Virus record (IMG/VR): IMGVR_UViG_3300024269_000017
DNA length: 40,877 nt
Source: a virus
Lineage: Duplodnaviria; Heunggongvirae; Uroviricota; Caudoviricetes
Strand: one strand, 5' to 3'
In this document: positions 10,786 to 38,178 of the stretch, piece by piece
How the letters are laid out: every line of letters begins with the position of its first letter
Numbering within the stretch: the first letter of the stretch is position 1
Notes under the pieces: generated by a model
What the model saw: only the letters and a program-made list of their open reading frames with translations
Databases searched by the model: none
What the model was told of the DNA's origin: nothing
Translations under genes and position numbers: made by a program

Positions 10786-11534
10786 TGATTATGATCGCCG
10801 GCCCATGCGCCGTGGAAACTGCGACTGACACTTATAAAATCGCAGAGGAATTAAGTAAATATGATAAAAAAATCATTCTGCGTGGCGGTTGCTGGAAACC
10901 CCGCACTAGACCAGATTCCTTCCAGGGGCTCGGAGAGGTCGGCGTTGATATGCTTGTTGCTGCGTATGAATTATATGGACTACAAGGGTGCTGTTTAGAG
11001 GTAATGAGTAAAAAACATTTGGATTATGTTATTAATCATTATCCAGAAAAAAACATTATTCTTCAAATTGGCTCTCGTAATATGCAAAATTTTGAACTAC
11101 TTAAATTAGTAAGTTCTTATTCTAAGGAATATGGTAATACAGTACTTCTAAAGCGAGGCTTTGGAAATACCGTTGATGAAATGTGTGGAGCGAGGGATTA
11201 TTTACAGCATGACAATGTTATCTTATGTGAGCGTGGTATTAGGACTCTGTCTGATGCTAGTCGTTTCACTTTGGATTTGTCCGCCATCCCTGTGTTACAG
11301 CAAAAAACTGGGTGTCGAGTTATCGTGGACCCATCCCACGCTGCTGGAGAGAGAAGTCTGGTATCCGGATTGGCACGGGCTGGTATCGCCGCAGGAGCAG
11401 ATGGCTTGGAAATTGAGGTAAAATCAATGTTTGCCAAGTGTCCGCGTAAATGCGATGAAGCACAAGCTCTCCCCATAGATGAATTTTATGTTTTAGCACA
11501 TGTGTGTGAAGATATTGACAAAATCTTAAAATAA
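10785..11534 (+). CDS. aroF: 3-deoxy-D-arabino-heptulosonate-7-phosphate (DAHP) synthase, type I-beta, no N-terminal regulatory domain (249 aa)
   Basis: IAGPCAVE, LRGGCWKPRT, FQGLG, QIGSRNMQNFELL, VLLKRG, ILCERGIRT, RFTLDL, IVDPSHAAG, GADGLEIE. Start placed at ATG 10785 (GAGGA RBS), not 10725. KPRT rather than KANRS argues against KDO8P synthase. Confidence 0.88.
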   Translation: MIMIAGPCAVETATDTYKIAEELSKYDKKIILRGGCWKPRTRPDSFQGLGEVGVDMLVAAYELYGLQGCCLEVMSKKHLDYVINHYPEKNIILQIGSRNMQNFELLKLVSSYSKEYGNTVLLKRGFGNTVDEMCGARDYLQHDNVILCERGIRTLSDASRFTLDLSAIPVLQQKTGCRVIVDPSHAAGERSLVSGLARAGIAAGADGLEIEVKSMFAKCPRKCDEAQALPIDEFYVLAHVCEDIDKILK

Positions 11535-11554: not shown

Positions 11555-12559
11555 ATGCAATATGCTGATAGCAAAAATTTATTTGACCAACTATCTGAAG
11601 ATTTTTCCAGAAAGTGTACAACAACTTCTCAGCCTATTAATTATCTAAAATTCTGTAATAACAATGGCCAAATTAATACTGATTTGGATATTCAGCGAGG
11701 TTACCAATGGGATGAAAAACGTCAGCAAGAGATGTGGAACAGTTTGCTGCTTAATGCTCATATTCCTGAATTCCATGCATTAATCCGCAATGATATTTAC
11801 GACATTATTGATGGTAAACAGCGACTATTAACGATCTTTAAAATCATCAATGATGAAATTCCTCTGAAATACAGCTATGCAGGTCCCGAGCTGCACTGGC
11901 TTTTTACTCAAGGAAAAAATAAAGATGCTCTTGTCCGACAGATTAATTTTTCTTGTTTACCAAAGGAGTTGCAATATCGTATTTATAATACTACGATTTT
12001 GATTACTACTTACTCTAATCTTGACAGAGATGAACAAATTATGCTCTTTAAAAAAATTAATAATGGTAAAGCATTAAGTGATTTTGCAAAAGGATTGTGC
12101 GAAAATTTCTTTATCCGCAAGGATGGTACTGCTGAAATGCTAAAGCATTCTGTGTTTAAAAATTCAGAATGGAAAGATGAAGAACAAGAGGCAATTGAGA
12201 AAGCGTTAGTTCGCTTTATGATTCTTAAGCATAAAAATATGGTAGTTTCTCTAGAACCCACAAAGATGATTAGTTACTATCCTGAATTTGATCGTGACGT
12301 ATTAAATTTGAGCGTTAAGCAAGTAAATGCTGTCTTAGATCGTATTCCCACTTTGCATAAAATTCTTAAATGCCGCGCTTGGGAATCTTATTTTCCAGCA
12401 TTTTTAATAGTAGTTGATCGTCATCCTGAGCTTACAGCAGAACAAATTGACACCATGCTTGTAAAAATTCGTTCTTGTACTGCTGGGCGCGGAGCTGATT
12501 TAAGAGCCAGTATTGTTGCTGAACGCATCGACACTGTAGAATCTTTAATTGACAATTAA
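11555..12559 (+). CDS. DUF262 (ParB-like/GmrS-type) domain protein
   Basis: IQRGYQW...WNSLL...IP...YDIIDGKQRLLTI is the DUF262 signature. Confidence 0.8.
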   Translation: MQYADSKNLFDQLSEDFSRKCTTTSQPINYLKFCNNNGQINTDLDIQRGYQWDEKRQQEMWNSLLLNAHIPEFHALIRNDIYDIIDGKQRLLTIFKIINDEIPLKYSYAGPELHWLFTQGKNKDALVRQINFSCLPKELQYRIYNTTILITTYSNLDRDEQIMLFKKINNGKALSDFAKGLCENFFIRKDGTAEMLKHSVFKNSEWKDEEQEAIEKALVRFMILKHKNMVVSLEPTKMISYYPEFDRDVLNLSVKQVNAVLDRIPTLHKILKCRAWESYFPAFLIVVDRHPELTAEQIDTMLVKIRSCTAGRGADLRASIVAERIDTVESLIDN

Positions 12560-23833: not shown

Positions 23834-24238
23834 TTAACTAGCAGCTGCAAGCTTATTTACTTGTACCTGGGCTTCAATCAAAGTAGTCAAGTACTGATCG
23901 AAATCTCCAAGGGCACTAGCAAGATACTCTTTAGCATCATCTGTAAGAATGGCTAAAACCGCACTCTTAGTCATTTCAAAAGCTTTCTTCTGTGCCTCAG
24001 GATCAAAAGCATTTTGACCCTTAAGAGCATCTACATATGTTTGAGTTGTGGTTAAAACGCAATCGGTTACAGTCTCCTGTAACATAAGCACATACTTATC
24101 ATGCTTATCATTATCAACACGATTAATCAACTCGTTGCTCTTAGCATTAATAAACTTAATAAAATAAGTGCTCAATACAACCAAGAGCGGAATGATTACT
24201 AGTTCAAAAATTTGTTGAGCCATTTCCATCCATTCCAT
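23834..24238 (-). CDS. Probable holin (single N-terminal TM, LL-H-like)
   Basis: Hydrophobic IFELVIIPLLVVLSTYFIKFI, then amphipathic helices; AAGGAGG RBS; downstream of endolysin. Confidence 0.65.
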   Translation of the reverse strand: MEWMEMAQQIFELVIIPLLVVLSTYFIKFINAKSNELINRVDNDKHDKYVLMLQETVTDCVLTTTQTYVDALKGQNAFDPEAQKKAFEMTKSAVLAILTDDAKEYLASALGDFDQYLTTLIEAQVQVNKLAAAS

Positions 24239-24250
24239 AAAAAGACCTCC

Positions 24251-24604
24251 TTATCCGCAAGACTCCTCATCAGTCTCAGGATCTTGACCTACTTGCTCAC
24301 GCAGTAGGGCTGTAATAAGTTTTCTTTGTGTGTCTAACTTAATTTCATTTTCAGCTTTTGCTTTATATGAATAAAAACCGGTCACTGTCGCACACTCAGC
24401 AAAGACCGCGGGAATTAGGTACATAAGCGCATCAATGTTATTAAAATACCACATTGCAATGCAAGAAAAGATGGTGATGGCAAGAGTGACAGCGCAAACT
24501 GCGATCACAAGAATTTTGCTGAAAGACCATTTCTTCTCCACCTTGGGAGAAAAAATGGTTTCAACATATTGAGTAGTCGCGCTTTTAATTCTGCGAGGAA
24601 TCAA
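24251..24604 (-). CDS. Two-TM membrane protein, probable holin/antiholin
   Basis: Two hydrophobic stretches, then FYSYKAKAEN and an acidic tail; TTG start abutting the endolysin stop. Confidence 0.6.
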   Translation of the reverse strand: MIPRRIKSATTQYVETIFSPKVEKKWSFSKILVIAVCAVTLAITIFSCIAMWYFNNIDALMYLIPAVFAECATVTGFYSYKAKAENEIKLDTQRKLITALLREQVGQDPETDEESCG

Positions 24605-26575
24605 TTAAGCAACCGCCTTTGCAAGAGCTTCCCAAGTCTTGGGACCGCAAATGCCATCGACCTTAATATTTACTTTCTTCTGGAATGCGCGAACTGCATT
24701 CACAGTTTTAGTGCCATAGTCACCATCAATACCATCTTTATTTTCGCCATAAGTACCAAGATCATATCCAAGTTTCTTCAAATTAGTTTGAAGAATTTTT
24801 ACATAATCATTTTCAGCGCCTTTACGGATTGTTGGATATTTACTGAAATCAAGAGAAGGAGTGATTACGTTTTCATTATCATCATCAGAATCATCCTTAC
24901 CTTGCGCAGCTTGAAGCTTTTTAAGAAGTTCTGCATCAACAATACCATCTGCCAAGATGCCATTATCACGTTCAAATTCTTTAACTGCAGTTGCGGTTTG
25001 AGAACCAAACTGACCATCAGCCTTATCTTCAAGTTCATATCCCAAATCCATTAAGATTTCCTGAAGTTCTTCAACATCAGCGCCAGTCATACCTTCTTTC
25101 AAAGGTAGACGCTCGCCAAGATCATAATCAGTCTTTTCGCCATCAAAAACAAGGAATGTATTCATAACATAACCATACTTGCCGTCAAAATAAGTTTTGC
25201 TCCAAGTTTCTTCACGCTCGTAAACATTAACCTTCTGGCCTTTAGGAATGCGAGCAAGAATGGACGCAGAGGTTGATTTGCCAGCACGCAAATTGAGTCT
25301 TCCAGAGACTGTAGTTACTACCGCAGTAGCAATAGGCTTAGGAGCTTCTACTTCTGGTTCTTCTGCTTTATATTCTCCAGATACGTATTTAATACCCGGA
25401 AATTCATACCAATCAGTCCAAGGACGTTTATTTAAATCGGTAATGATAATACCCTTAGCAAACCCATAAGCTTCAACAACTTTACCATTACCAATATAAT
25501 AGCCAACATGACCATCCTTGCGCACAGCAAGCCCAGGCACTTCTGGGATAGTTGCAATCTTACCATATTTTAAACCCTTGCTCTTGGCATAAGTGAACAT
25601 ACTATTTGCAGATTTATCAGGGCAGTTATTTCCATATTTACTCTTGAAGGTCTTATCAGTACCAATAGATTCGATAACACCTTCACCGCCATAAGTCCAA
25701 TTGTATCCTTTACCAAGTCCCACACAATCAGCAGAAACCATCTTCTTAGAAATGTGAGATTTATATGTAGCAGTACGATCACTACCATAATGAGAAGGAT
25801 ATTGATTAGTTTTACTCTTTAAAGTAGAAGTTGTACATTTATATACACAAGTGCCATACCAATATGGCTGGCCAACCATTGCTTTCAAAAATTCTACAAA
25901 ATGTAAGTTAGTATATTTTTCATATTGAGACATAACATTCCCTCCTTGGGGTTTACCTTCCGTCGTCCCGACGATAGGTTCGCTCGGTTGGGTTACCACT
26001 ACCTCGCCATAATTCTTGCGAATTTCTGTACCTGGATAGTAGAATGCCAAAATTTCATCATATTTAACACCAATAGAAGCTGCATACTTAGCGCCGGTTT
26101 GACTCATACCAACACCATGTCCATTCTTCTTGCCCTATGAGACGGCATAATCCCACGGGTCTTCTTGGGCGATTAAATATGCTCGCTTTCCGCCCCACTT
26201 TTCCTCACTTGAGTAGGTGCGGCCGCCGTTCATAGCACTGTAATGTGCATTTGTAACGATCTTGTTATTATAATAAAGAACTTCACCCTTCGTCTCTTCA
26301 ACTGCTTGATGTGCTCTTGCATATGAATTAGAGAAGCGTGAAGCGCGGAATGCCTAATCTGTTGAGGATTTGTCGCTAATAGATCCTTTACTCTAATAGC
26401 GATATAAAGCGAAAGTGCGGGCCGCAACAGCTTGAGCTTTACCTGCTTCAAGAGCAGCATTACCTACTTCTGCGGGAACCACACCTTTTAGATATTCTTC
26501 AATATCAATTTCAATTTCATCTTTACCATAATAGTCAAGATTTTCGGAGCGAGTAAGTTTTACTTTAATTAGCAT
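24605..26575 (-). CDS. Modular endolysin: SpoIID/LytB domain + NlpC/P60 peptidase + SH3 + two PG-binding domains (656 aa; three TAG=Gln)
   Basis: EEYLKGVVPAEVG, KAQAVAARTFA, GHGVGMSQTGA, EILAFYYPG (SpoIID); ADCVG and GHVGYYIG (NlpC/P60); LNLRAGKS...IPKG (SH3); two DG.FG/YG..T..AV..F repeats. TAGs at 26393, 26354 and 26135 join ORF 26393-26575 to ORF 24605-26107. Confidence 0.88.
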
Positions 26576-26589
26576 GCTTATTCCTCCTT

Positions 26590-26625
26590 AAAAAAAGAAG
26601 AGGGTTGTTTATTACAACCCTCTTT
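26590..26625 (-). terminator. Intrinsic terminator closing the radical SAM operon
   Basis: Stem AAGAGGGTTGT/ACAACCCTCTT, then a T-run on the - strand. Confidence 0.85.
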
Positions 26626-26628
26626 ACA

Positions 26629-26943
26629 TTATTCAACAATCTTCTTTAAGCGAAGATTTACTTCACGACGGTCAATTTCTTCATTCATGGTATCAAACAA
26701 AGTATCAATCTTGAAATTATCAACCACATCGTACAAGAGCTCACCGTTCTTATCAAAAACATGTACAGCCTTAATAGTGATACCAACATAAGACTTAATA
26801 TCTTCGATGGTGTCTGCAAGACTAGCTGCTGTGTTATCAAGGTAGCAGTTAAAATCATTGCCGAGCTCGCCATTTTCAATATGGCTATAATTTACGCTAC
26901 GAACGTCATAACGTGTTGCAGAATCGTTGAAACTAATAAACAT
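26629..26943 (-). CDS. Hypothetical protein (104 aa), last gene of the rSAM operon
   Basis: AAGGAGA RBS; acidic, no recognised motif. Confidence 0.75.
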   Translation of the reverse strand: MFISFNDSATRYDVRSVNYSHIENGELGNDFNCYLDNTAASLADTIEDIKSYVGITIKAVHVFDKNGELLYDVVDNFKIDTLFDTMNEEIDRREVNLRLKKIVE

Positions 26944-26959
26944 GTTTTATTCTCTCCTT

Positions 26960-27640
26960 TTAGTTTGCTGGTGGAGGTGGTGGAGGCGGGGGAGGATTAC
27001 ATCCACACTCCTCGGGTTTACTTCCATTCCAATCAGAGTTTTTTGGCCCTTCCTCAGGCTTTACTAAACCAAGCGCAGTTAAATAAGTTTGAGAAAGGCG
27101 AAGAGAAGCAGGACGAGACTGACGCCAAGATCTGAGTTCTTTAACAATGCTAGAAGAAGCTTGCATTAATTCAAGATAACCAGCGCCCATTTGTGCCAAT
27201 GTATATGTTGGCGCAAGAGTGTCTTGAATCAAACCAATGCGCTGGGCAATAGTCTGACTACGTTCATCTTCTGGACCATTAGACAATTTAAAGTCTAAAT
27301 AGTTACCAAATACAGAGCAATATTGATGAACAATCGCGCACCAGGCACTCATAAAATCATTCCAGGGAAGCTTATCCTCAGTAAGAATAAGAGTTGGAAA
27401 TTCATGTTCAATACGAATGAACATGTCTAAAGTGTCCTGAGAAATTGTAAATGCACCATCGTCCTCTCCCGGTTCCCAAGCTGTGATGGCATCAATTTGC
27501 TCCAATACTCTAATCATAATTAATGAAAGTTGCGGCTGAATGGCTGTTAAAATACGACCAATAGGACCCAAAGTATCAATTTCTTTCATCACATGATAGC
27601 GGGCCTCGCCATAAGAAAAATTACGAATTTCAGTTAACAT
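26960..27640 (-). CDS. Hypothetical protein (226 aa) with C-terminal ECGC and poly-Pro
   Basis: Overlaps the rSAM stop; ends KPEECGCNPPPPPPPPPAN. Confidence 0.8.
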   Translation of the reverse strand: MLTEIRNFSYGEARYHVMKEIDTLGPIGRILTAIQPQLSLIMIRVLEQIDAITAWEPGEDDGAFTISQDTLDMFIRIEHEFPTLILTEDKLPWNDFMSAWCAIVHQYCSVFGNYLDFKLSNGPEDERSQTIAQRIGLIQDTLAPTYTLAQMGAGYLELMQASSSIVKELRSWRQSRPASLRLSQTYLTALGLVKPEEGPKNSDWNGSKPEECGCNPPPPPPPPPAN

Positions 27641-29018
27641 TTAACTCCGTTACCTCCTCAAGATATTTGAATTGCACTTTCTTTTCTTCAGACAAATCTC
27701 TCCAAACTACACTCCACACCCCATGTTCTTGTAGCCATTTCATTTCAGTATAAATCATAGCATGAGCTACTGCACATACAGTAGGAATTGGAGTAATTAA
27801 ATTACGAGTGCATTCATATTGAGCACCAAGACAGGTGCCAGTACATAATTCATTAATAGGACATTGCGCACAATGCGGCAAAGATGCTTTATGCATAGAA
27901 TATGTTGAAATTAACAATTCCGGATTGATGCATTCAAATTTCAAAATTTCTTTTTCATCAGGCACCAATTTACCATAATACATATCTTCATATCCTGTGC
28001 GGTGACATGGATACATCATTAAGTCACTTACACGTAATGTAAATTGGCTTTGAATACCGCAGGTAAGACCACGTCCACAAGTTGTTAAAGGCTGACTAAA
28101 CATATTAAAACCATTTGCTTTAACTAACCAGCCTGCCATAGCATATGGATCTTTATTAATTTTATTTTCCCATACCCAATCAAGAACAAATCTCATAAAT
28201 TTACACAAAGACTGAACTTGATCATAATTCCATTCTTCATTGCGGACATGCAATAAATACAGGCTCTCCCATGGGATATTGTGTTTTTCCATCATTTCTT
28301 GGAACCACAAGAAATTTTGAGGCCATGCATCAATATTTCTACTATATACCATTGGATGCAAGCCACCATGAATCATATGAGAAAATTGAAATGCACGATC
28401 ATAGTACTCGTCATCTCGCACACCACCACCCAAATCCACATCTAGATCATGTAGATAAGGACGATTGTCTTCCATATATTTTCCATCAAAACTCGCACTA
28501 AGACCTAGAGTAATACCTATACTTTCGAATTTAGCATGAAGTTCTTTTACTCTTGCAGTTGCTTCTTCAGAACACACAAAAGTAAAATTAGTAGGAATTA
28601 CAATTTCAATTGGACGATATAAAGGATCTAAATCCTTAAAATGTTCATAAATAGTTTCTAATACTTTATATCCAACTTCTTGAGCTAATAATTCACCAGA
28701 GAAAATTTCAATGTTAGCGTTCCAATCATTATGAGTGTACCATTGTAAAATAGTTTTTAGATTTTCAATAGTACGCTCTTCGTTGAAACAATCTTCACTA
28801 AAAATCTTTTTGCGATGACGATGTAAATAACAATATCTACAACCTAAATTGCAACGCGGTGAAATAATTAACTCAATATTTTTCATTTTCTGATCTCTTG
28901 GGGTATCAATAGAGAAATCATCATAAAAATATTTCTCAATTACCCAAGCGCCCAATTCATGATTTTCTTTTTGATATTGAGACAAACCAGTATCATTTAC
29001 ATTGCAATGCTCGGCCAT
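27630..29018 (-). CDS. Radical SAM/SPASM domain protein (peptide/protein maturase type)
   Basis: CNLGCRYC; FSGEL; ASFDG; TCG...YPCHR; CAQCPINELCTGTC (CX2CX5CX3C)...TVC. Confidence 0.9.
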   Translation of the reverse strand: MAEHCNVNDTGLSQYQKENHELGAWVIEKYFYDDFSIDTPRDQKMKNIELIISPRCNLGCRYCYLHRHRKKIFSEDCFNEERTIENLKTILQWYTHNDWNANIEIFSGELLAQEVGYKVLETIYEHFKDLDPLYRPIEIVIPTNFTFVCSEEATARVKELHAKFESIGITLGLSASFDGKYMEDNRPYLHDLDVDLGGGVRDDEYYDRAFQFSHMIHGGLHPMVYSRNIDAWPQNFLWFQEMMEKHNIPWESLYLLHVRNEEWNYDQVQSLCKFMRFVLDWVWENKINKDPYAMAGWLVKANGFNMFSQPLTTCGRGLTCGIQSQFTLRVSDLMMYPCHRTGYEDMYYGKLVPDEKEILKFECINPELLISTYSMHKASLPHCAQCPINELCTGTCLGAQYECTRNLITPIPTVCAVAHAMIYTEMKWLQEHGVWSVVWRDLSEEKKVQFKYLEEVTELNVN

Positions 29019-30409
29019 GGTTTCATCGCTCCTCTATTTACTAAAATTTTATAATATCGCATCATTTCTTCCACAGCACCATTGCCTAATAAACGCAAAT
29101 AACTGCAAGGTACAATAGAAGGATTAGTTGTATAGTCTTCCTCAACGCCAATATGACAATATAATCCACAAGTCATCATAAACATTAATAAACGATCATC
29201 TTCATTATATGCATATTTACTGTTGATTTGTCCAGCGCAAGCCATTGTTACAGCCATTTGATCAAAGAAATATTTTCTAGACATAATATCGGCATGGAAA
29301 GACATAGAACCATAAGTGCGTTTCATCCAAACCTTATCATTAGTATTCATATTACATCCACTTTGCATTGCATGCTTAGTCTTCATTTTTTCATCAAGAG
29401 CTGCATTACGACAGAGACGATTACAAGTATAAATATTTCCTTCATGATCAATAGTAATATTATTCTTACTAGCGGAACAAGAATAAGAATTTTCTTGTGT
29501 CGCAATAGGATTGCCAGCTTCTGCTTGGAAAAATACTTCAGGTCCATTAAATAATTGACCAAAAAGAGGGCGACCATCATAGCAAGGTTTATCTTGTACA
29601 TTTACTCTCGGTAAAAAGCTAAGCCATTTTGCAAATGTCTCACCATCTTCTTGAGTATAATAGCCTGGGTCAACCAAAGTTGGGCAACCCGCAATTTGTA
29701 AACTAATATTTTTTTTACCTTCAATTAATTTATCGCATTCAACTTGTAAATCATTGAAGAATTTATAATACCAGTTAAATGAATCAATTCCTCTCTCATT
29801 CATAATTTTCATATAACTAACATCTAATGTAGCTTTAGTATTAATTACAAGAGAGAAATATTCCATATCTGCAGGACAACGAGTTAAAATTTCTTTCATA
29901 GTTTTAATTGTGCTCGCAGTCGCTCCAGGATGACGAGAATCATCATTAAATTCAGGTGGACCATCTAAAGACATTTGAAGATTAAAAGTGATTTTACGTT
30001 TGTGGTGAGTTGCATAAACCATCATTGGCAAGAAAAAATCTTCATAAATGCGATCGCCCAAAAGAGCATTAGTAGAAAACATTACATCTTTAGCATTTGG
30101 ATAATAGTCAAATAATGCTTCAAATGTTGCTCGCCAGTACTGACTATTAATTGTAGGTTCTGCGCCCCACAAACTTACATTTTCAATAGCATCACGGATG
30201 CCTGCGGTGACACGTTTAACATTTTCTACAAAAGTTCCATCTTCAAGTGCTTGACGAATATCTCTATTATAAGAAGCCATGCACTTTTTTTCTTTTTCAA
30301 TATAACAATATTTACATGCCATATTGCAATCTGATGACCAGTGTAGGCTGACGCTGGCTATATTAGCCAGCGCTTCGCCTAAATAATCAAGAGAAGGAAT
30401 TTGTTTCAT
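28997..30409 (-). CDS. Radical SAM protein with partial SPASM domain
   Basis: CNMACKYC; WGAEP; STN; SLDGPPEFNDDSR; CSAS...ITIDHEGNIYTC; CGLYC...PC; GAGGAG RBS. Confidence 0.9.
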   Translation of the reverse strand: MKQIPSLDYLGEALANIASVSLHWSSDCNMACKYCYIEKEKKCMASYNRDIRQALEDGTFVENVKRVTAGIRDAIENVSLWGAEPTINSQYWRATFEALFDYYPNAKDVMFSTNALLGDRIYEDFFLPMMVYATHHKRKITFNLQMSLDGPPEFNDDSRHPGATASTIKTMKEILTRCPADMEYFSLVINTKATLDVSYMKIMNERGIDSFNWYYKFFNDLQVECDKLIEGKKNISLQIAGCPTLVDPGYYTQEDGETFAKWLSFLPRVNVQDKPCYDGRPLFGQLFNGPEVFFQAEAGNPIATQENSYSCSASKNNITIDHEGNIYTCNRLCRNAALDEKMKTKHAMQSGCNMNTNDKVWMKRTYGSMSFHADIMSRKYFFDQMAVTMACAGQINSKYAYNEDDRLLMFMMTCGLYCHIGVEEDYTTNPSIVPCSYLRLLGNGAVEEMMRYYKILVNRGAMKPWPSIAM

Positions 30410-30430
30410 ATCTCCGTTTTCTCCTCTCGC

Positions 30431-31924
30431 TTAATTCGAGTAATTTCTTGAATAATAATTACTAGTATAATTACCAGTTTTATTGCCAGAATTATATGTA
30501 GAATAGTTACCAGACTTATAAGTGGTATGATAACCTGTCTTATAGCTAGTATAATCCGCGGTATCATAACTATGATTGGTGCCATTATGAGAACTCTTGG
30601 CGCCACTGTCATTAGAAGAATAATAACTTCCATGATGGGAGGTATAATCCGCGCTATCATAGCTATAATTACTCGTTTTATAAGTTGTATAATGCGTTTT
30701 TGCGCTTGCATTATAACCACCATGATTACTTGTGTAATCTGCACTATCGTGAGAATATTTTCCACCATAGTGAGTAGTATAATTTGCGCCTTTTGCAGAT
30801 GCATTATAAGTAGCAAAATTGCTGCCATTATATCCGGCATAATGAGTGTACTTTCCACTGTTATATCCAGTATAATCTCCACCATTAGCAGATGCGTAAT
30901 ATGAGCCTTTGTGCGTAGCATAGTTTGTGCTATGATAGGCATAATTACCACCATTGTGGACGGAATAATGTGCATTTGCTGTTGTATAATATCCGCCAAA
31001 ATTATTAGTATTATAAGAACTTAAGTGACCAACTTTTTCACTCTAATAATGTGTACTATTATGACCAGATTTATGTGTAATATAATATGTTTCATAATGA
31101 GCAGTATTTTGCCCAGTATAATGATTAACATAATAAGAAGTTTTTACTGTGGCATTATAATTAGTATAGTTTGCAGTATCATAAGTTACATAATGAGTAG
31201 TATAATATGTGGCATTATTTGAAGTATTGTAGCCTGCATAATGGCTATATTTTTGCGCACCATTATGTGTATCAAATTCAGTACTAAATTGATTACCAAA
31301 ATGATCTGGACAATGTGAAGTATTATAAATTTGATAGTGCGTAGTATAATAATTAGTATAATACGCTTTATGGTTACTACTATAATCCGCAGACTTATGA
31401 AGACGATTGCCCGTATAATAAGTTCCATGGAACTAATAATGAGCACTCTTATACGTTACATAATTTGTTGTATTATGTTCATAATTTCCACCAAAATAAG
31501 AATAATAATGAGTACCATTATGAGTAGTATAATAATCTGCATAATGATTCGTATAATAACTTGCATTATGACCATATCGATGACTGTTAAAATACTCAGT
31601 ATAATAAGAATTATGCCAAGCTGTCCAGTTATTAATATCATATCCGGTATAATAATTTACTAAATGCCCTGTATAATAAGCATCATTATATCCAGATTTA
31701 TGACCTGATTTATAAGATGAAAGATGCCCGTTATAATATGTACCTTTTTCACCATTGTGATGGGTAGCATAATGTCCACTATAATGTGAACTTAAATGTC
31801 CGCTCAAGTGCCCTGAATAATATGCAGGGCAATGAGCAGCTTCTTGGGCCTAAATTGCAGTTAATGGATTATTTAAGTCAGAAGGAATAATTTTATTTCC
31901 TTTGACTGCTGTTGAAGTCGCCAT
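30431..31924 (-). CDS. Tyr/His/Asn/Ser/Thr/Gly tetrapeptide-repeat protein B (497 aa; three TAG=Gln); mostly missed by the ORF track
   Basis: GGAGGA RBS, ATG 31924. MATSTAVKGNKIIPSDLNNPLTAI*AQEAAHCPAYYSGHLSGHLSSHYSG... is open (TAG at 31850, 31433, 31043 only) to ...YYSRNYSN-TAA 30431. About 90 Tyr by hand count. Confidence 0.85.
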
Positions 31925-31946
31925 TGTGGATTATTCCTCCTTTTTA

Positions 31947-33563
31947 TTAAGTTACAGTAACATTATGCGATTTATTACCAGCACGATAAGCGGTATAATT
32001 AGAAGTATTATAAGTGCCATAATTAGCAGTATAATAACCTGTCTTATAATTACTATGGTTACCACTATTATAACCACTCCAGTGAGAATTACGAGCAGCA
32101 TTTTGACCACTATTATAAGAGCTATCATGTCCACTCTTATTACCTGAATAATGACCACTATTATATCCGCTCCAGTGAGAACGCTGTGCAGTTAAATTAG
32201 AGTTATTATATGTTGCATAGTTACCGCTTAAATGACTTGTATAATAACCACTATTATAACCACTCCAATGATTATTATAAGTGGAATAATTTGAACCATT
32301 ATGACTGGTGTAATGACCACTTAAATGTCCTGTATAATTACCATTATTTTCAGAGCTTCTATGAGAAGTATATACAGTCTTATTATGATTAGTGTAATGC
32401 GTAGCATAATAACCACTTAAATGCCCTGTATAATCACCTGCATTGTGAGATACATAATGAGCTCTATAACCAGTTTGATATCCCATATTATGACTAGAAT
32501 ATCGTCCTGTATAATGAGTAGTATAATTATTACTATTATAAGTTGAATAATGATTATTTTTTCCTGTGTATTGAGCAGTATAATTAGAGCTTAAATAGCC
32601 AGAATTGTATCCAGTATAATTAGCTGCATCACGACTAGTGTATTGAGTACCATTATGCCCTGAATAATGCGTTTTTTGTCCTGCTTTATTTGTACTATTA
32701 TAGGTCGAATAATGAGTTGTATAATTAGTAGTTTTTGCTCCACTATTATAGGTGGAATAATGAGAGCTTCTGTGAGCATAATCATATGTTTCAAAATGAC
32801 TATCATAAGCAACAGCACGGTGAGATTTTGCTCCAATATGATAAGTGGTATATTGAGTACCGTAATAGCCAGTATAATGACTATTTTGATTAGTATAATG
32901 ACTATAATAATAATTATTATAATTAGTACTCTTATAAGAACTATCATGTGAACTATAATAACCACTATAATATTCTGCATTATGACTTTCAAATTCTGCC
33001 GCTCTATGATAAAAATGACTTTTTTCAGTAGTATTGCGAGTTGTATAATGAGTTGCATAATAAGTAGCATTTCTACCGCTGTAATGTGGAGCAAAATACG
33101 TATTATAATGAGCTTCACGATGAGCAGAATAATAAATACCACATGCTGCCCAGTTATCAAAATATTGCCAATTACTATGATGAGATCCATAGAAATCGGA
33201 ATTATGAGTTGTATAATAGCTACTATAATGACTACTCTTATAACTACTTTCTCTGCCGCTATAATATGTTGCATTATATGAAGTATATTGTGTTGCATAA
33301 ACCGTAGATTTATGCGCATTTAAATATCCTGCATTATAAGCGGCACAACCGTAATTGATAGAACCAGCTTGGCTATCAATAACATCCGATAATTCTTTAG
33401 GCGAATTATAATTTAATTTAGAATTATAAACTGCAATAGGATCATGTTGCCAATTATATTTGGCTAAACCCAATTTATCAGTTCTAAAATTATCAATTCG
33501 ATTTCGAACTAATAAATAATCAGAATATGCAGTTTTCTAACCCGTTGAAACTGGTACCGCCAT
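31947..33563 (-). CDS. Tyr/His/Asn/Ser/Thr/Gly tetrapeptide-repeat protein A (538 aa; one TAG=Gln at codon 9)
   Basis: AAGGAGGG RBS, ATG 33563. MAVPVSTG*KTAYSDYLLVRNRIDNFRTDKLGLAKY... is continuous with track ORF 31947-33473. About 90 Tyr by hand count. Confidence 0.88.
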
Positions 33564-33592
33564 TCGTTCGCCCTCCTTTATCTCTATAAAAT

Positions 33593-33621
33593 ATTATAAC
33601 AAAAATTTTTATCTATGTCAA
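33593..33621 (-). promoter_or_regulatory. Consensus sigma70 promoter driving the repeat-protein/rSAM operon
   Basis: On the - strand: TTGACA (33621-33616), 17 bp, TG-T-TATAAT (33598-33593). Confidence 0.85.
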
Positions 33622-33655
33622 AAAAAAATATGGCCGCAATTAAGCGGCCATATTT
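33621..33655 (-). terminator. Intrinsic terminator after the tail fibre gene
   Basis: AAATATGGCCGC/GCGGCCATATTT stem, with a T-run running into the promoter -35. Confidence 0.85.
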
Positions 33656-33843: not shown

Positions 33844-36800
33844 TTAACGAACTTTAATCCAGATTCGTCCATTTACTTCAACATTACCAGTGCCCCAAGT
33901 CTCATAATTAGGGATTTCAGAAACAGTGCCAACAATACGATCAGGATACATCATAATTTCTTCTCTTGTCATTAAACTAACAGTGCCATTCGGACCAGTA
34001 CATACTGCTGCACCAAGAGGATAAGAATTTCTATCTTCATAAGTATATGCTAAAGCACGTCCAGCAACCGCCAAAGGAGTTTTACATTCGTTTGTTTCAC
34101 CCATAGCAGAACCAAAAGTATCAGATACAATACTTGCCCCAGCCTACAGTCTCTCTGTTGAAATTTTCATTTCTCCAGAAATATCTTCTATTACCACTCG
34201 GCCTGGCTCAACTGTTTCTGCTTTTCTAAATTCAGCATAGTCATTCCAAACAGCATTATATACTTTAGTACCATAAATAGCTCCAGCAACACCAAGACCA
34301 CCAGATACTTTTAATGCACCAGAAGTAGTATTTGTTGCTGCGGTAGTATTTGTAATAGATACTACACCAGTAAATGTTTTAGTACCAGCAAAAGATTGTG
34401 TGCCGGTAGTTACAACGCCAGCTTGATTTGTTGCAGCATTAGGAACATATAATGTAGCAACGCCAGTGCCAGTAGCAATACTTAATCCACCAGTATAAGT
34501 CGGAGTATGATAATAGTTAGTGTTAGTATTTGGATTTGCTGGCATAGTTACCTTTAAGTCTACTCCAGCGACAGTACCAATAGTACTTGTTTGTCCCCAT
34601 GCTAAAGTAGGGCCGCTATTAGTTACCGCTTTCCAAGAAGGAGCGGCAGAAGAGCCACCACTTGTTAAAATCTAACCCGCAGTTCCTGTACCCAAAGAAG
34701 CAAGAGCAGAAGAACTTGATGCATATACTAATCCATATGCTGTCCAAGATGTTTTTCCAGTACCGCCGTGACCGACCCCTAAAGTGCCAGTAATACCAGG
34801 ACGTGGGCTCGCCGCAAATACGTTAGCCGCGGTAGTAGAGCCAAGATTAACCAACATGGATGGATTTGAAGTAATTCCAGTACCACCATAAGCTACAGCA
34901 AGAGCATTGGTTAATTGTAAAGTAGGAATGGAGGTTGTACCATAAAATGTTACATCTTTATTATCCATTCCAATTCGCATTGCATTATTAAAAGTTGCTT
35001 CTGTGCTGGTGTTAGTTCCAGAACCAGAGGTTTGAAGCACAAAATAATTTGCATTAGATGATCCAGTTCCTAAAACACCCGCACGCCATTCTGCCCCATA
35101 ATTGGTAGTTTGATGTTCCCAAATAATAAACTTATCAGTATCACCAGTTAAAATACGAATATCGTCATTAAAGGTTTTTGCACCAGCAAATGTTTGCGCG
35201 CCAGTGGTGACAACGCCTCCTTGCGTAGCATTTGCTGCATCAAGCGTAACAGTTCTATTTTTTCCTGCGACAGTAATAGATAAAGTTTCACCATTAGCTC
35301 CTGCAGTAGAACTAAAGTTGCTAAATAGTGAGCTCGCATCACAAGATGTTATTATACCACCGTTTAAATAAACTGGTACACTTGCACTACCAGCTGTTCC
35401 AGTTAATGCTTTAATTTCACCACTAGACATATAGACAGGCTGAGTAGTTGAACCAAGAGTGGAGGATGATGCTGTTAATGTACCAGCATTTAAGAAGATT
35501 GGTTTTGCGCTTGCACCAACACTGGCGCCAGAAGCCTTAATTATACCATCTTCCATATAAATTGGTTTAGTCGCGCTACCAATATCTGAGGTAGACGCTG
35601 TGATTGTACCACTATTTAAAAATACTGGATTATTAGATGCACCAACAGTAGAGGACGATGCTGTTAATGTACCAGCATTTAGATACATAGGAACAATACC
35701 AGATCCAACCGTAGAAGTGGATGCTGTTGCTGCACCATCTGCTGCGATATATACAGGCTTTACTCCAGAACCAATTGCAGTATCATTGGTATGAACTACA
35801 AACTGATATCCCGTAGTAGATGCTGCGACATTAGGTAAATTAAATACGTTACTATTCGCCGTACCAGAATCAATGCGAACGTCATAATCAGCAGTAGAAG
35901 CATTGGTCTTATGAAAGTCTAAATAACGACCAATTTCACTTACACCAGATCCATTAACAGTAACAAAACCATTGTTAAACCATGCGCCAGATTTTGGTAA
36001 AGTAATAGTAATAGTTTCATCCGCGCCCTTATTGGTATGACCATAAGTATCAACAGTAATCTGCGGAATGGCAAAAGAGGTTGCGGCTCCAGTTAATGTT
36101 GTAACAGTATTGCCGCTAGTATAACCACTACTTGGTCCCTTCTTAGCATGCTTTGCGTCATAGGTGACTCCGTTAGTTCCAGCAGTACCAGTTAAAACAA
36201 CAATATCATCATCTGTTGCTGTTGCACTAATATTAATCTATACATTCTTTTTAGTGACAGTAATTTTACCATTGGTATCTTGGCTAATAGTATCAATAAA
36301 AGCGGATGCATTACCTGATGTACCTGGGCTAGACACAGCAGTTTGAAGAACCTTGTAGCTACCTTCATCACCAAGCAATTCCCAGCGACTATTGTAACTA
36401 TTCCAAACATATTCTTTTGTGCCATAAATAACCACATCGCCAGCTAAACGATCATCGGGCCAAGTATATCCAGAAATTTTAGGATCAGTATTACTTTGAT
36501 TTGTGATAGCTACGGTAGCAACACCGATATAATGCATTGCATTTGTTAAACCAAGATTAATACGTAGCTGCTCGGCAGTAATTGAACCTCCAAGAGAAAC
36601 ACTTGTGCCTGCAATATTAACTGAAGAATTAACTAATTTATTATTAGCAATTGATCCCGCTAACATAGCATTGGTAACTTTACCAGTGCCAATAGTAGTA
36701 GTGATGTTCCAATCGGCACTTCCATTAGAAGAGCCTGTGCCACCTACGTCTCCACTTAAAGTAACTGCTCGTGATGCATTAAGTTTAGAAGCAGAAGTGG

Positions 36801-38178
36801 CATTACCACTGAATGTAGTTGCATATACAGTTCCTTGCGCATAAATATTCTTCCATCTAGCAGTATCTGTACCAAGACTATATGTATTATGTGCAGAAGG
36901 ATTAATATGTTGAGCAGTGGTAGTTCCACCAATTGTAGCACCACTCGCACCAATTTCTGCCTTTTTAGCAACAATAGTTTCACCAAATGTTGCACCACCA
37001 GTAACGGTTAATGCTTGTGTAGCATGATTACTACCAATAACTGCTGTTCCAGTACTTGTTAACTTTGCAGAAGCAGTAATATATGGAGCAGAAATAGTGC
37101 CTTCAGAACTAATATTTCCAACCGCTGCAATAGTAGAAGATGCACTTATAGCACCAGTAAAAGAAGATGTTTCAGTTACAGCAAGAGTGCTTTGTAATGT
37201 GGTTGCGCCAGTTGCTTTTAAAGTTCCATTAGCAACAATATTTTTTAAATTTGCAACGCCAGCTCCACTAACATAATATGTTGTACCACCAAAATATAAA
37301 GAAGTGCCTGACGCTACAGTTGTTTTATTATTTAAAGCTACTGTATTAGTAAAAGTAGTAGCTCCATTGAAAGCCGCAGTTCCAGAGGCGGTCAAATTAG
37401 AAGCAATAGCTACAGGAACCGCTGCGATGTTTAATGTATTTGTTGTGTCAGAAAGAGTTTGATAAATAATAAATTGAGAGGCTTTATTATCAAAGATACC
37501 TCTTGTTACAGAAGTTGCTTTCATTTGCCATCCATGAGAACTGTTTTTCACATTAACATAAGCATCTCCACTAGAAGTGTTGATTGTTAATGGACCAGTC
37601 ATCGTATCGCCATCAATATTCACATATAAATCATCTAAAGCAGCTTCACAGTTTGTTAAAAAATTATTAACTGTTAAAATCGGACTATTATTGTGATATA
37701 AATTGCTAGCATCACTTGTATATAAATACAACCCTCCAACTTGAGGATTTGTAGATTCTGCCAAACTTAAAATTGCCTTACCAGCGCTATCTTTAATAGC
37801 TTGCCCACTACTAAGAGTGACACCAGAAGACAGAACAGGGGAGGACTTAAAAGTCTTCACTCCATAAATTTCTTGAGCAACTAAGCTCAAAACACCAGAA
37901 TGGTCTGATGAAGCATATGGCAATTCTCTAATTGCCTCTTGACCACCAACTTCTAATTTAATACAGCTGGCTTTTTCATCGTCGCCATCTGCTTTCACAA
38001 AAGTGATTACAGGCGCACCTGTTAATAAATCTGCGTACTAAGCATTTAACGGCACTCTCTCTGTGGCAGTATCAATATAAAACTTACCATTATCAGGAGT
38101 AAAATAAGCATAACCTTCAGTTATTTTTTGATTACCTAAGCTTGCCGCAGGACCTTTAAAAATCTTAAAAAGAGCCAA
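33844..38178 (-). CDS. Long tail fibre / receptor-binding protein (1444 aa; four TAG=Gln)
   Basis: TTG 38178 with GGGAGG RBS (MALFKIFKGPAASLG...). One frame runs through TAGs at 38038, 36238, 34672 and 34144, joining four track ORFs. T/S/G/A-rich; EIGRYLDFH...DYDVRI and GTAG*ILTSGG fibre motifs. Confidence 0.85.
35340..35760 (-). repeat. Seven ~21-aa (63-bp) tandem repeats in the tail fibre
   Basis: Units xP(V/I/M)(Y/F)(L/M/I)xxGx(L/I/A)xA(S/L)xxx(V/L/I/A)Gxxx, e.g. VPMYLNAGTLTASSSTVGASN and KPIFLNAGTLTASSSTLGSTT. Confidence 0.8.

Follow-up and report, generated by a model that had tools for sequence, protein, structure and literature searches.

QhpD and QhpC serve the maturation of quinohemoprotein amine dehydrogenase. 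Cooperation between two radical SAM enzymes is known from thuricin CD, whose TrnC and TrnD form a complex with two precursors as its targets (PMC12093266), and from the HXS system, with HxsB and HxsC. The repeat protein matured by HxsB, HxsC and HxsD stays a protein, and HxsC binds the accessory protein HxsD; bacterial HxsA blocks the entry of phage DNA (PMC13128918). Cyclophanes based on His and Tyr are also known (PMC11499958).

The window analyzed here is a stretch of 40,877 nucleotides from a gut virus of the Caudoviricetes (IMG/VR record IMGVR_UViG_3300024269_000017). It carries a six-gene cassette (33655-26598, minus strand) which is probably a phage-borne RiPP-type maturation unit working at protein scale. 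The initial annotation recognized no described phage system of this form, and likewise no published description of the six-gene cassette was found. The cassette and its neighbors comprise:

33844-38178, minus strand: putative tail-fibre gene directly upstream, 1444 aa, four TAG codons
33626-33655, minus strand: terminator hairpin at the 5' end of the cassette, 12-bp stem with 6 G-C pairs, T-run
33593-33621, minus strand: promoter, TTGACA, 17-nt spacer, TATAAT (12/12 sigma-70 consensus), extended -10 TG
31947-33563, minus strand: gene A, 538 aa, one TAG (codon 9) read through
30431-31924, minus strand: gene B, 497 aa, three TAG (codons 25, 164 and 294) read through
28997-30409, minus strand: rSAM1, radical SAM enzyme, 470 aa
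27630-29018, minus strand: rSAM2, radical SAM enzyme, 462 aa
26960-27640, minus strand: unk1, 226 aa
26629-26943, minus strand: unk2, 104 aa
26598-26624, minus strand: intrinsic terminator at the 3' end of the cassette, 11-bp stem, T-run
24605-26575, minus strand: endolysin with SpoIID, SH3 and PG_binding domains (Pfam and PHROGs)
24251-24604, minus strand: gene between endolysin and holin
23834-24238, minus strand: holin (Pfam and PHROGs)

The cassette had been described as a self-contained unit of terminator, promoter and terminator, and every element was found at its place. The T-run of the first terminator extends into the -35 box of the promoter, and this hairpin is predicted to end the transcript of the putative tail-fibre gene. 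Over the window, promoter-like and terminator-like sites are not more common than in shuffled sequences, and the cassette sites alone stand out. The terminator-then-promoter layout is kept in loci L015, L016, L017 and L012, all with a 12/12 promoter; the score is 11/12 in L005 and 10/12 in L010. The promoter is kept although the A proteins share just 30–45% identity or so where this was measured, and it is absent from the deep lineages L004, L007 and L013. The acquisition of its own perfect-consensus promoter suggests that A and B are probably produced in large amounts.

A strong Shine-Dalgarno sequence precedes both A and B, and both repeat proteins are present at the lengths first proposed when TAG is read through. 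Read-through is also required in the neighbors (four TAG in the 1444-aa protein, three in the lysin), and the 568-aa B homologue of locus L002 is a single open frame with zero TAG. Comparison with a 91%-identical relative gives a dN/dS of about 0.1 (0.09–0.11; 0.10 for gene A and 0.11 for gene B, with dS around 1.1), and the giant cores are under purifying selection. The dN/dS values and the TAG-free homologue establish that A and B are real genes.

The upstream 1444-aa protein may be a tail fibre, considering its size, its Gly/Thr/Ser/Ala-rich repeats and a C-terminal segment (WNDYAE...EPGxVV...GR) that recurs in the genes preceding the cassette in L007, L008 and L013; it has no significant family match in Pfam, PHROGs, PDB or deposited phages. 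The lysis genes (23834-26575, minus strand) are directly downstream. The cassette had been placed between a tail fibre and a lysin: Pfam and PHROGs bear out the endolysin and the holin, but the tail fibre stays putative.

At least 15 metagenomic loci carry the cassette, with enzyme identities as low as about 30%. Loci L002-L007, L010-L013 and L015-L017 keep the order [A][B]-rSAM1-rSAM2-unk1(-unk2) while rSAM1 identity falls from 91% to about 30%. The cassette is nearly always 3' of a large tail-fibre-like gene and 5' of lysins. In all full cassettes examined, the rSAM pair directly follows genes of the A/B type, and a B homologue is always present; L007 has a single 201-aa fusion of A and B. 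Locus L014, on a contig of a Saccharibacteria MAG, contains a Cys/Asp/Ser/Tyr-rich precursor, rSAM1, rSAM2, unk1, a third SPASM enzyme and a TPR protein, and has no tail fibre. This gene set suggests that the core of the system consists of a precursor, two rSAMs and unk1.

A and B could instead be common structural or decoration proteins, with the tail fibre, a cofactor or a nucleotide as the target of the rSAM pair. Consistent with this idea, the reduced variant seen in L008 and on the contig of P0072 has a lone, shortened rSAM1-like gene directly after the tail-fibre gene and neither A nor B, which suggests that this enzyme lineage may accept another substrate. However, adjacency is strict in about 15 loci, down to about 30% identity, and the precursor, both rSAMs and unk1 persist in L014 without the tail fibre. 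A leader, an invariant Cys and a hypervariable core are the signature of enzyme-recognized precursors. The enzymes do not resemble cofactor- or nucleotide-modifying rSAMs, a kinship that the initial annotation had considered: matches to such families never exceed the generic core. Unrelated neighbors are therefore a highly improbable explanation, and the synteny and architecture point to A and B as the probable substrates of the rSAM pair.

The profile of the A leader retrieves 83 relatives among 1.84 billion representatives. The A/B-related precursor-like family counts about 80 proteins with a median length of 127 aa (most have 80–165 aa) and a typical core of about 47 aa. A conserved N-terminal "leader" characterizes its members; it is followed by a hypervariable core of Ser, Thr, Asn, Tyr, His and Gly, with a near-invariant Cys where leader and core meet. 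The junction Cys, in the consensus (V/I)(N/D)TG-C-(S/T)(S/T)(N/H/Y)(N/Y/H)(S/T/A), is invariant in an alignment of 24 sequences and was seen in 79 of the 86 matches to the leader; the A homologue of L006 lacks a Cys at this aligned position. This single Cys, which had been overlooked, is the most conserved feature of the substrates. Where the enzymes are 81–82% identical, the A and B proteins of the loci compared share only 40–43% identity. Across the family, cores measure between 8 and 465 aa, and their composition goes from Asp/Ser-rich to Cys-rich (as in some short members, e.g., P0156, P0127 and P0089) to Tyr/His-rich. In the tree, short precursors occur in all deep branches, with stepwise growth from 269 to 441 to 538 aa in the A/B lineage. 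A and B are the extreme end of the precursor family, and the giant repeats are a lineage-specific expansion of ordinary precursors of about 100 residues. An rSAM pair lacking any repeat protein had been named as evidence against the proposal; the pair does occur without giant repeats, yet all full cassettes include a homologous precursor.

Protein A consists of a leader-like domain of about 72 aa, the junction Cys73 (33345-33347) and a 465-aa Tyr/His/Ser/Thr/Asn/Gly core; its second Cys is residue 141. Protein B has a leader of about 30 aa, a His-Cys-Pro junction (Cys32, 31829-31831) and a 465-aa core like that of A, with a second His-Cys-Pro at residues 204-206. The residues Y/H/S/T/N/G/A make up 82–83% of the cores, and I/L/V/M only about 3%; the GRAVY index is -1.3 and the pI 8.1–9.0. 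The cores have a clear period of four residues. Each core contains the triad [Y/H]-x-[S/T/G] 90 times, compared to 45–47 in shuffled sequences (z about 9.7), and the reverse triad [S/T]-x-[Y/H] is equally enriched, a symmetry that is expected from a plain four-residue period. In the giant cores, 89–93% of Tyr are conserved, and no core residues are better conserved than Tyr and His.

rSAM1 has the motif CX3CX2C (C28, C32, C35) and matches Pfam PF04055 (1.3e-7); 73 homologues were found. Just three Cys are conserved in its C-terminal part (C311, C329, C418), which suggests that its auxiliary domain is twitch-like or a degenerate SPASM. rSAM2 (CX3CX2C at C56, C60, C63) has a full seven-Cys SPASM motif (C320, C338, C383-x2-C386-x5-C392-x3-C396, C415). 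The rSAM and SPASM cysteines are invariant in the family alignments. The SPASM model TIGR04085 gives 21.8 bits with rSAM2 of the window (cut-off 27, E 1.9e-4) and is matched at E<=0.001 by 7/7 rSAM2 members, the best at 2.8e-7. The designation of both enzymes as rSAM/SPASM proteins thus holds for rSAM2, but the auxiliary domain of rSAM1 is reduced. hhalign aligns rSAM1 and rSAM2 with 93.5% probability over 282 columns, and rSAM2 appears to be a distant paralogue of rSAM1.

PapB is the best family for 27/27 rSAM1 and 7/7 rSAM2 members, and the best NCBIfam match of rSAM1 (49 bits for a cut-off of 340). In the PDB, the rSAM1 profile matches ChlB, anSME and CteB over the rSAM core only; the best match of rSAM2 is CteB (5wgg, 4.7e-9). 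Strong matches of both enzymes are limited to SPASM/twitch families that modify peptides or proteins, and the pair seems to resemble maturases of this kind, best those of the PapB/CteB thioether type; the nearest families (PapB, CteB, SCIFF and QhpD) are all thioether-forming. Neither enzyme reaches a curated family threshold (at most about 60 bits, for cut-offs of 340–855), HxsB and triceptide models included. For HxsB, triceptide and CXXX-repeat maturases, the families named at first for comparison, the pair is far below all cut-offs. With such scores, no chemistry can be read from the sequences of rSAM1 and rSAM2. No RRE-type recognition domain is visible in either enzyme, the N-terminal extensions being only about 25–55 aa long.

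unk1 is predicted to be all-alpha, with eight helices (AF2 pLDDT 81), and has no significant fold match in PDB or AFDB. Its C-terminal poly-Pro tail is confined to the lineage of the window. The unk1 profile also detects the gene in two loci outside its building set, L013 (2e-11) and the bacterial-context L014 (4e-9), and unk1 appears to be a conserved core member of the system. unk2, a predicted small beta-sandwich (AF2 pLDDT 88), is seen in phage cassettes only and was not detected in L011, L013 and L014. Its fold is marginally similar to those of Hcp and phage tail-tube/Dit-type proteins (TM 0.5–0.65, E 2e-3 to 5e-2).

In the maturation unit that we propose, A and B would be substrates made of an N-terminal recognition "leader" domain, a junction Cys and a hypervariable polar core. 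The two paralogous rSAMs probably cooperate, with the helical unk1 as a probable accessory, and both would install radical-mediated crosslinks. The likeliest would be a thioether (or a related link) from the junction Cys to an Asn, His or Tyr three to four positions downstream. In the lineage of the window, the core grew from about 50 to about 460 aa, and in such expanded forms further links might be made at the approximately 90 [Tyr/His]-x-[Ser/Thr/Gly] units of each protein. The many crosslinks along some 500 aa originally proposed are one possibility, but not the best-supported chemistry, since the nearest families form thioethers. The cores hold two Cys each in the window, so that a Cys-based crosslink could reach only a tiny part of the 465 aa and leaves the Tyr/His repeats unexplained.

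Modification might be confined to the junction motif (the Cys and the next three to five residues), as a thioether ring or an oxidized Cys, for instance. The Tyr/His-rich tail would then be a long unmodified low-complexity region, adhesive, metal-binding or condensate/gel-forming, whose expansion tunes length; FUS-type [G/S]Y[G/S] domains are condensate/gel-forming regions of low complexity. Indeed, conservation across the family is limited to the leader and the junction motif while core length and composition vary, Cys is the crosslink donor in the nearest enzyme families, and each window core has just one Cys beyond that of the junction. However, two enzymes and an accessory seem much for one site per substrate, and every core, short or long, keeps the S/T/N/Y/H/G alphabet. 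The twofold triad enrichment and the conservation of Tyr and His fit reaction sites or structural contacts. Modification at a single site is thus possible, although we doubt it.

As initially reported, no protease or transporter is recognizable in the operon. This suggests that the products of the proposed unit leave through the adjacent holin/endolysin lysis or join the virion near the tail fibre. Of their possible roles, a virion or host-surface function is only slightly more likely than action as a released free agent. In a more specific version of release, lysis would free a two-component modified peptide or protein, either a bacteriocin-like killer, a signal or a modifier of neighboring cell surfaces, and the giant forms would be multi-core polyprecursors. 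Two precursors with two rSAMs reproduce the thuricin CD layout (PMC12093266, PMC3132745), the median of 127 aa is typical of RiPP precursors, the adjoining lysis genes make an exporter unnecessary, and a bacterial-context version exists (L014). This version is nevertheless unlikely: there is no protease and no regular cleavage motif between repeat units, and membrane-active bacteriocins do not share the extreme polarity of the cores. Moreover, the module accompanies the tail-fibre gene at nearly all phage loci, and is co-transcribed with it in the deep lineages without their own promoter; the marginal tail-tube/Hcp-like fold of unk2 also argues against it.

Among known systems, PapB/PapA, CteB/SCIFF and thuricin CD (TrnC/TrnD, TrnA/TrnB) give the best sequence matches for both rSAMs. 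The maturation unit proposed here shares with ranthipeptide and sactipeptide systems precursors made of a leader and a core with a conserved Cys, and the seven-Cys SPASM of rSAM2; with thuricin CD it also shares the two precursors and two rSAM enzymes. It differs from them by its low scores, the absence of an RRE domain, a transporter and a protease, the three auxiliary-domain Cys of rSAM1, cores of up to 465 aa with one or two Cys, and its location in phages next to a tail-fibre-like gene.

HXS (HxsA-D, TIGR03976-03979) also has an adjacent rSAM pair, a small accessory and a His-x-Ser repeat protein that works as a protein (PMC13128918). By analogy, superinfection exclusion could be the role of the matured repeat proteins, which would keep out the DNA of other phages from a place within the infected cell or at its envelope. 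One core contains 20 His-x-Ser motifs (z 6.0) and the other 13 (z 3.7), and both are mildly basic. However, the HxsB model scores 25.6 bits compared to 370, and the HxsC, HxsD and HxsA models are unmatched. HxsA has five repeats, a peptidoglycan-binding domain and periplasmic export (PMC13128918), whereas the cassette has two substrates with about 90 repeat units each, and neither a signal peptide nor a peptidoglycan-binding domain. HXS systems are found at 99.7% in Pseudomonadota (PMC13128918), the cassette in a phage context. PADLOC detects no defence family, and the cassette lies among late/lysis genes. The TAG codons suggest that A and B are translated late, when exclusion would be of little use. 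This role is thus very unlikely.

Like the triceptide maturases (XyeB, GrrM/OscB, FxsB, YhhB and HaaB/HtkB), which are SPASM-type rSAMs acting on repeated aromatic-x-x motifs, the pair is associated with a twofold enriched [Tyr/His]-x-[Ser/Thr/Gly] motif. The matches are weak: YhhB is best (1.4e-11 among members), XyeB, FxsB and GrrM match marginally, and every score is far below its cut-off. Known triceptide substrates are short peptides with few motifs. QhpD is a SPASM rSAM that makes Cys thioethers in a protein-sized substrate which remains a protein. Its model, TIGR03906, is matched by 21/27 rSAM1 and 7/7 rSAM2 members, but weakly (best 1.4e-8, about 25 bits for a cut-off of 453); the cassette has no dehydrogenase partner genes and its substrates are unrelated. 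The CXXX-repeat system (TIGR04114/04115/04117) resembles the cassette in the four-residue period of its substrate and in the Cys-rich cores of some short family members. Yet TIGR04115 reaches 25.6 bits of 350, over the CX3CX2C stretch only, TIGR04114 is unmatched, and the repeated residue in A and B is Tyr/His/Asn, not Cys. Set beside rSAM substrates with Cys repeats, the Tyr/His-repeat form is a distinct variant.

The cassette forms a compact unit on the minus strand, spanning 33655-26598. The initial annotation had described it as self-contained (a terminator with a consensus promoter, A, B, two radical SAM enzymes, two unknown proteins and a closing terminator), and each of these elements could be located:

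33655-33626 (-), strong terminator hairpin, which opens the unit and immediately precedes the promoter
33621-33593 (-), promoter TTGACA-17 nt-TATAAT, 12/12, with an extended -10 TG
31947-33563 (-), gene A, 538 aa, TAG read through
30431-31924 (-), gene B, 497 aa, TAG read through
28997-30409 (-), rSAM1, radical SAM gene, 470 aa
27630-29018 (-), rSAM2, radical SAM gene, 462 aa
26960-27640 (-), unk1, 226 aa
26629-26943 (-), unk2, 104 aa
26624-26598 (-), closing terminator, end of the unit

Residue numbering assumes that TAG encodes Gln; two neighbouring genes (1444 and 656 aa) also need TAG as a sense codon. Downstream, the cassette is followed by genes for an endolysin and a holin. The Gly/Thr/Ser-rich 1444-aa protein encoded upstream is a tail fibre by inference only, because it is recognised by no library (Pfam, PHROGs and PDB gave no tail-fibre annotation). 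The window comes from an IMG/VR virus record of 168.7 kb, and near-identical DNA is present in animal faecal and gut metagenomes.

The terminator and the promoter upstream of A are kept in the related loci L015, L016, L017 and L012 (12/12 in each), L005 (11/12) and L010 (10/12), and the promoter persists despite diverged coding sequences. The derived clade therefore probably makes these proteins in bulk. The deep lineages L004, L007 and L013 lack this arrangement, and in these the cassette appears to be co-transcribed with the fibre gene.

Tyr, His, Ser, Thr, Asn, Gly and Ala make up 82-83% of the A and B cores. Tyr counts are 84 in A and 90 in B, and His counts 43 and 46; aliphatic residues amount to about 3%, and the GRAVY is -1.3. 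Autocorrelation reveals a 4-residue period. The [Y/H]-x-[S/T/G] triad occurs 90 times per core, compared to 45-47 times in shuffled sequences (z of about 9.7), and HxS triads are also enriched (20 in A, 13 in B). The reverse of the first triad is likewise enriched, and the pattern is therefore a 4-residue period rather than a directional motif. Tandem repeats in the DNA are weak, limited to short, diverged 12/24-nt arrays, so the repeats are not explained by recent slippage. The cores are under purifying selection: compared with L015, whose rSAM1 is 91% identical, dN/dS is 0.09-0.10, with synonymous sites that are saturated (dS about 1.1), and 89-93% of the Tyr are conserved. The 568-aa homologue of B in L002 is a plain open frame with zero TAG. 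Neither A nor B has a signal peptide or a peptidoglycan-binding domain, and no NCBIfam or Pfam model matched them.

The main new result is that A and B are, as judged from sequence comparisons, expanded members of a precursor family. A-type proteins have in common an N-terminal domain of about 70 aa; the domain common to B-type proteins is shorter (about 30 aa) and is weakly detected by the A profile. Each of these leaders terminates at a conserved Cys, with the junction consensus (V/I)(N/D)TG-C-(S/T)(S/T)(N/H/Y)(N/Y/H)(S/T/A) in A and His-Cys-Pro/Ser-x-(Y/H/N) in B. The A-leader profile matched 83 proteins among 1.84 billion representatives, mostly of 80-165 aa, and the junction Cys is found in 79 of 86 leader matches. 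The median length of the family is 127 aa, with a median core of 47 aa. In 33 of 79 sequences the residue before the junction Cys is Gly, which is not taken as a sign of cleavage. The cores are hypervariable, yet all are built from one set of residues (Ser, Asn, Thr, Tyr, Gly, His, at times Asp or Cys), and some short members have Cys-rich cores. Beyond the junction Cys, each 465-aa core of the window contains just one more Cys; A carries a second copy of the Cys motif at residue 141 and B a second His-Cys-Pro at 204-206. A conserved leader and a variable core are thus encoded beside modifying enzymes, the general arrangement of RiPP precursors and their maturases.

In the rSAM1 tree, all deep branches have short precursors, and A/B grow stepwise in the window's lineage, from 269/244 to 441/400 and then 538/497 aa. 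At an enzyme identity of 81-82%, A and B share just 40-43% identity with those of the window and are shorter by about 100 aa. A word-based homologue search with residues 1-130 of A against proteins of 295-942 aa gave no match. The A leader resembles a repeat of about 30 aa, with a consensus of about SWTDPTITANSTKIRKVHIDELRSAI, seen in the leader-profile matches P0121, P0136, P0142, P0150 and P0154; three copies of this type of repeat stand at the C-terminus of secreted beta-propeller or LamG-type proteins, and in some cases a Cys-rich tail comes after them. It is possible that the A leader is a widespread structural repeat or arose from one.

The 73 homologues of rSAM1 are metagenomic and carry no informative names. 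About 15 loci were examined, all of them metagenomic contigs, with rSAM1 identities from 91% down to about 30%. The gene order is constant: precursor gene(s), rSAM1, rSAM2 and unk1, then usually unk2 and lysins, and a fibre-like gene of 630-1440 aa usually precedes the cassette. Over this range the cassette is a conserved module; the initial annotation had proposed such a check of its neighbourhood in other phages. L007 encodes A and B as a fusion, one protein of 201 aa. The unk1 profile detected a homologue in two loci outside its build set. One of these, L014 (4174-11128 of the Saccharibacteria MAG contig CAYMTT010000003.1), is a version in a bacterial context, without a fibre gene. It encodes a precursor of 227 aa, whose N-terminal segment is hydrophobic and whose core is rich in Cys, Asp, Ser and Tyr, as well as proteins like rSAM1, rSAM2 and unk1, a third rSAM/SPASM enzyme and a 561-aa TPR protein. 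This fibre-free set indicates that the core of the system consists of the precursor, the two radical SAM enzymes and unk1; by the same comparison, phages added unk2 and the association with the fibre gene.

The endolysin of L017 (9731-11710) is 89% identical to that of the window (24605-26575), while the cassette genes are just 21-69% identical. This suggests that the cassette is exchanged, or diversifies fast relative to its flanks, like a host-range module. A reduced variant is seen in L008 (an IMG/VR contig, 1332-2689) and on the P0072 contig, with a single rSAM1-like gene directly after a tail-fibre gene. The encoded protein is shortened (349-356 aa) and retains every conserved Cys; next come a gene for a protein of some 100-115 aa and, after it, the lysis genes, and A, B, rSAM2 and unk1 are all absent. 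The substrate of this variant may be the fibre itself.

tblastn searches of the deposited phage genomes (INPHARED) with rSAM1 and with the fibre C-terminus gave no matches. With rSAM2, a Pseudomonas jumbo phage was matched in the generic radical SAM core alone, and this candidate was set aside, as its multi-rSAM cluster looks unrelated. In locus L018 (Pseudomonas phage pPa_SNUABM_DT01, MW735835.1, 47.7-60.1 kb), a jumbo phage region, seven radical SAM and two 2OG-Fe(II) oxygenase genes are annotated consecutively; these have just the generic core in common with the window's enzymes, and the cluster appears to be unrelated.

Both enzymes have the CX3CX2C and GGE-like SAM-binding motifs of the radical SAM superfamily, invariant in the alignments: C28/C32/C35 and WGAEP in rSAM1, C56/C60/C63 and SGE in rSAM2. 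rSAM1 scores 32.4 bits with PF04055 (cut-off 29.5) and rSAM2 24.9 bits, below the cut-off. When tested for the SPASM motif (C..G..C, CX2CX5CX3C, C), rSAM2 has the full set of seven Cys (C320, C338, C383, C386, C392, C396 and C415, all invariant); it scores 21.8 bits with TIGR04085 against a cut-off of 27, and seven of seven family members match this model at E<=0.001. rSAM1 retains only C311, C329 and C418 in its C-terminal region, which is the pattern of a twitch-like or degenerate SPASM domain. The two align over 282 columns with a probability of 93.5% in hhalign, including the first two auxiliary Cys, and are distant paralogues.

The top NCBIfam match of every family member is the PapB ranthipeptide maturase, followed by the anaerobic sulfatase maturase, SCIFF, QhpD, YhhB and other peptide maturases, but all these matches are at most 60 bits, against cut-offs of at least 340. 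The closest solved structures are CteB for rSAM2 and ChlB, anSME and CteB for rSAM1, over the radical SAM core only. PHROGs gave just the generic 'radical SAM domain' family phrog_1802 (1e-13 and 1e-15), and PADLOC nothing beyond weak matches to the viperin core. The similarities place the enzymes in the peptide/protein-modifying SPASM/twitch group, outside every curated family. Clustering with cofactor or nucleotide enzymes, which the initial annotation had named as evidence against its proposal, was not observed: the best matches are peptide and protein maturases.

No NCBIfam or Pfam model matched unk1 or unk2. unk1 is confidently modelled with eight helices (pLDDT 81); fold searches of PDB and AFDB returned nothing significant, there was no usable Atlas match, and a word-based search found 5 close relatives only. 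The C-terminus of unk1 (window 26960-27010) has a run of ten prolines, Asn-Pro10-Ala-Asn, which is kept in the four closest relatives and missing in more distant family members. The model of unk2 is a small beta-sandwich (pLDDT 88) that marginally resembles Hcp and proteins of the tail-tube/Dit type (TM 0.5-0.65, E 2e-3 to 5e-2), a hint that it might be tail-associated or a ring chaperone. A role of unk2 as an RRE/PqqD-like leader binder was dismissed, since the model is not a winged helix. The cassette encodes no recognisable protease, transporter or RRE domain, which agrees with the initial annotation as regards the first two. The Peptidase_C39_2 domains of the neighbouring lysins in L002 and L010 were considered as a leader protease and dismissed: they belong to peptidoglycan-binding lysins and are absent from the window.

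It is reasonably likely that this is a maturation cassette with A and B as its substrates. The leaders would be recognised by rSAM1 and rSAM2, together with unk1. By analogy with TrnC/TrnD and HxsB/HxsC, the two enzymes probably function as a pair, which would install radical crosslinks in A and B. The best-supported site is the junction Cys and, by similarity, the best-supported chemistry would be a thioether. Numerous crosslinks along the cores are doubtful; the Tyr/His repeat units could be additional sites, or an unmodified functional tail. The product would be released through the adjacent lysis genes, or incorporated in the virion. A virion or host-surface role has close to an even chance, and a free released agent is a real possibility that falls somewhat short of one. 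We regard as rather unlikely the most elaborate reading, in which, in a clade of large gut phages, the dedicated pair covalently cross-links ribosomally made 500-residue Tyr/His-rich polymers into a material that joins or coats the tail-fibre apparatus, with a length tuned by stepwise repeat expansion and a Tyr supply possibly supported by a phage DAHP synthase. If true, a 'protein-scale RiPP' would form a structure of the virion or of host contact.

At 10725-11534 (+) the window encodes a DAHP synthase, which catalyses the first step in making aromatic amino acids (Pfam 3e-45), with 225-249 bits for the NCBIfam type I-beta models versus about 52 bits for KDO8P synthase. A GmrSD_N gene (type IV restriction endonuclease N-terminal domain, E 4e-13) lies at 11555-12559 (+), between it and DNA polymerase III alpha. 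The DAHP synthase is found in the window phage and in G001, the phage genome of L005, which both have long Tyr-rich A/B, and is absent from the complete 139.6-kb genome G003, of the L007 phage, which has a short, Asp/Ser-rich precursor. The enzyme may help to meet the demand of about 180 Tyr per A+B pair, but in a comparison of three related phages this pattern could reflect plain phylogeny.

Nearly all known radical SAM/SPASM maturases come from bacterial peptide natural-product clusters, and cases in which the product remains a protein (QhpC, HxsA) are rare. Here, leader, core, paired enzymes and accessory protein are found in a new setting, the late region of large stop-codon-recoded gut phages, next to genes which decide host contact and lysis. 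The scale of the substrates is also new: they span about 80 to over 500 aa. For enzymology, both the enzymes and the precursors represent new families, with an unusual Tyr/His/Ser/Thr alphabet, and the natural range of substrate lengths would allow tests of processivity. For protein evolution, it is a clear example of a peptide precursor becoming a low-complexity protein under purifying selection.

The initial annotation recognised no described phage system of this form, and our literature search likewise found no account of one; radical SAM genes go unmentioned in a paper on phAss-1, a related phage group. The PapB-type and SCIFF (CteB) maturases are the nearest families (best E-value of about 1e-16 among the radical SAM family members), yet the window's enzymes are non-members, at 49.2 and 47.9 bits against the equivalog cut-offs of 340 for PapB (NF047865) and 425 for SCIFF (TIGR03974). 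Two known systems have a similar layout: in thuricin CD, the TrnC/TrnD complex acts on two precursors (PMC12093266), and in HXS systems, HxsB/HxsC together with HxsD mature a repeat protein (PMC13128918). HxsB (TIGR03978) scores 25.6 bits against 370, over the radical SAM core only, HxsC (TIGR03977) is unmatched, and no HxsA-type effector or HxsD is recognised here, although HxS triads are enriched. The A/B cores have the repeated aromatic-X-X of triceptide substrates, but this feature is non-specific, given the enriched reverse triad, and the triceptide maturase models score low (YhhB 24-30 bits against 445; XyeB, FxsB and GrrM at most 17 bits). CXXX-repeat systems have the period of 4 in common with A/B, but the repeated residue is here Tyr/His/Asn instead of Cys; TIGR04115 scores 25.6 bits against 350 and TIGR04114 is unmatched. 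The cassette thus belongs to none of the thuricin CD, HXS, PapB, CteB, triceptide and CXXX-repeat systems. It is a distinct, leader-bearing Tyr/His-repeat type, closest to thuricin CD and HXS by its layout, to PapB and CteB by its enzyme sequences, and to the triceptide and CXXX-repeat systems by its substrate logic.
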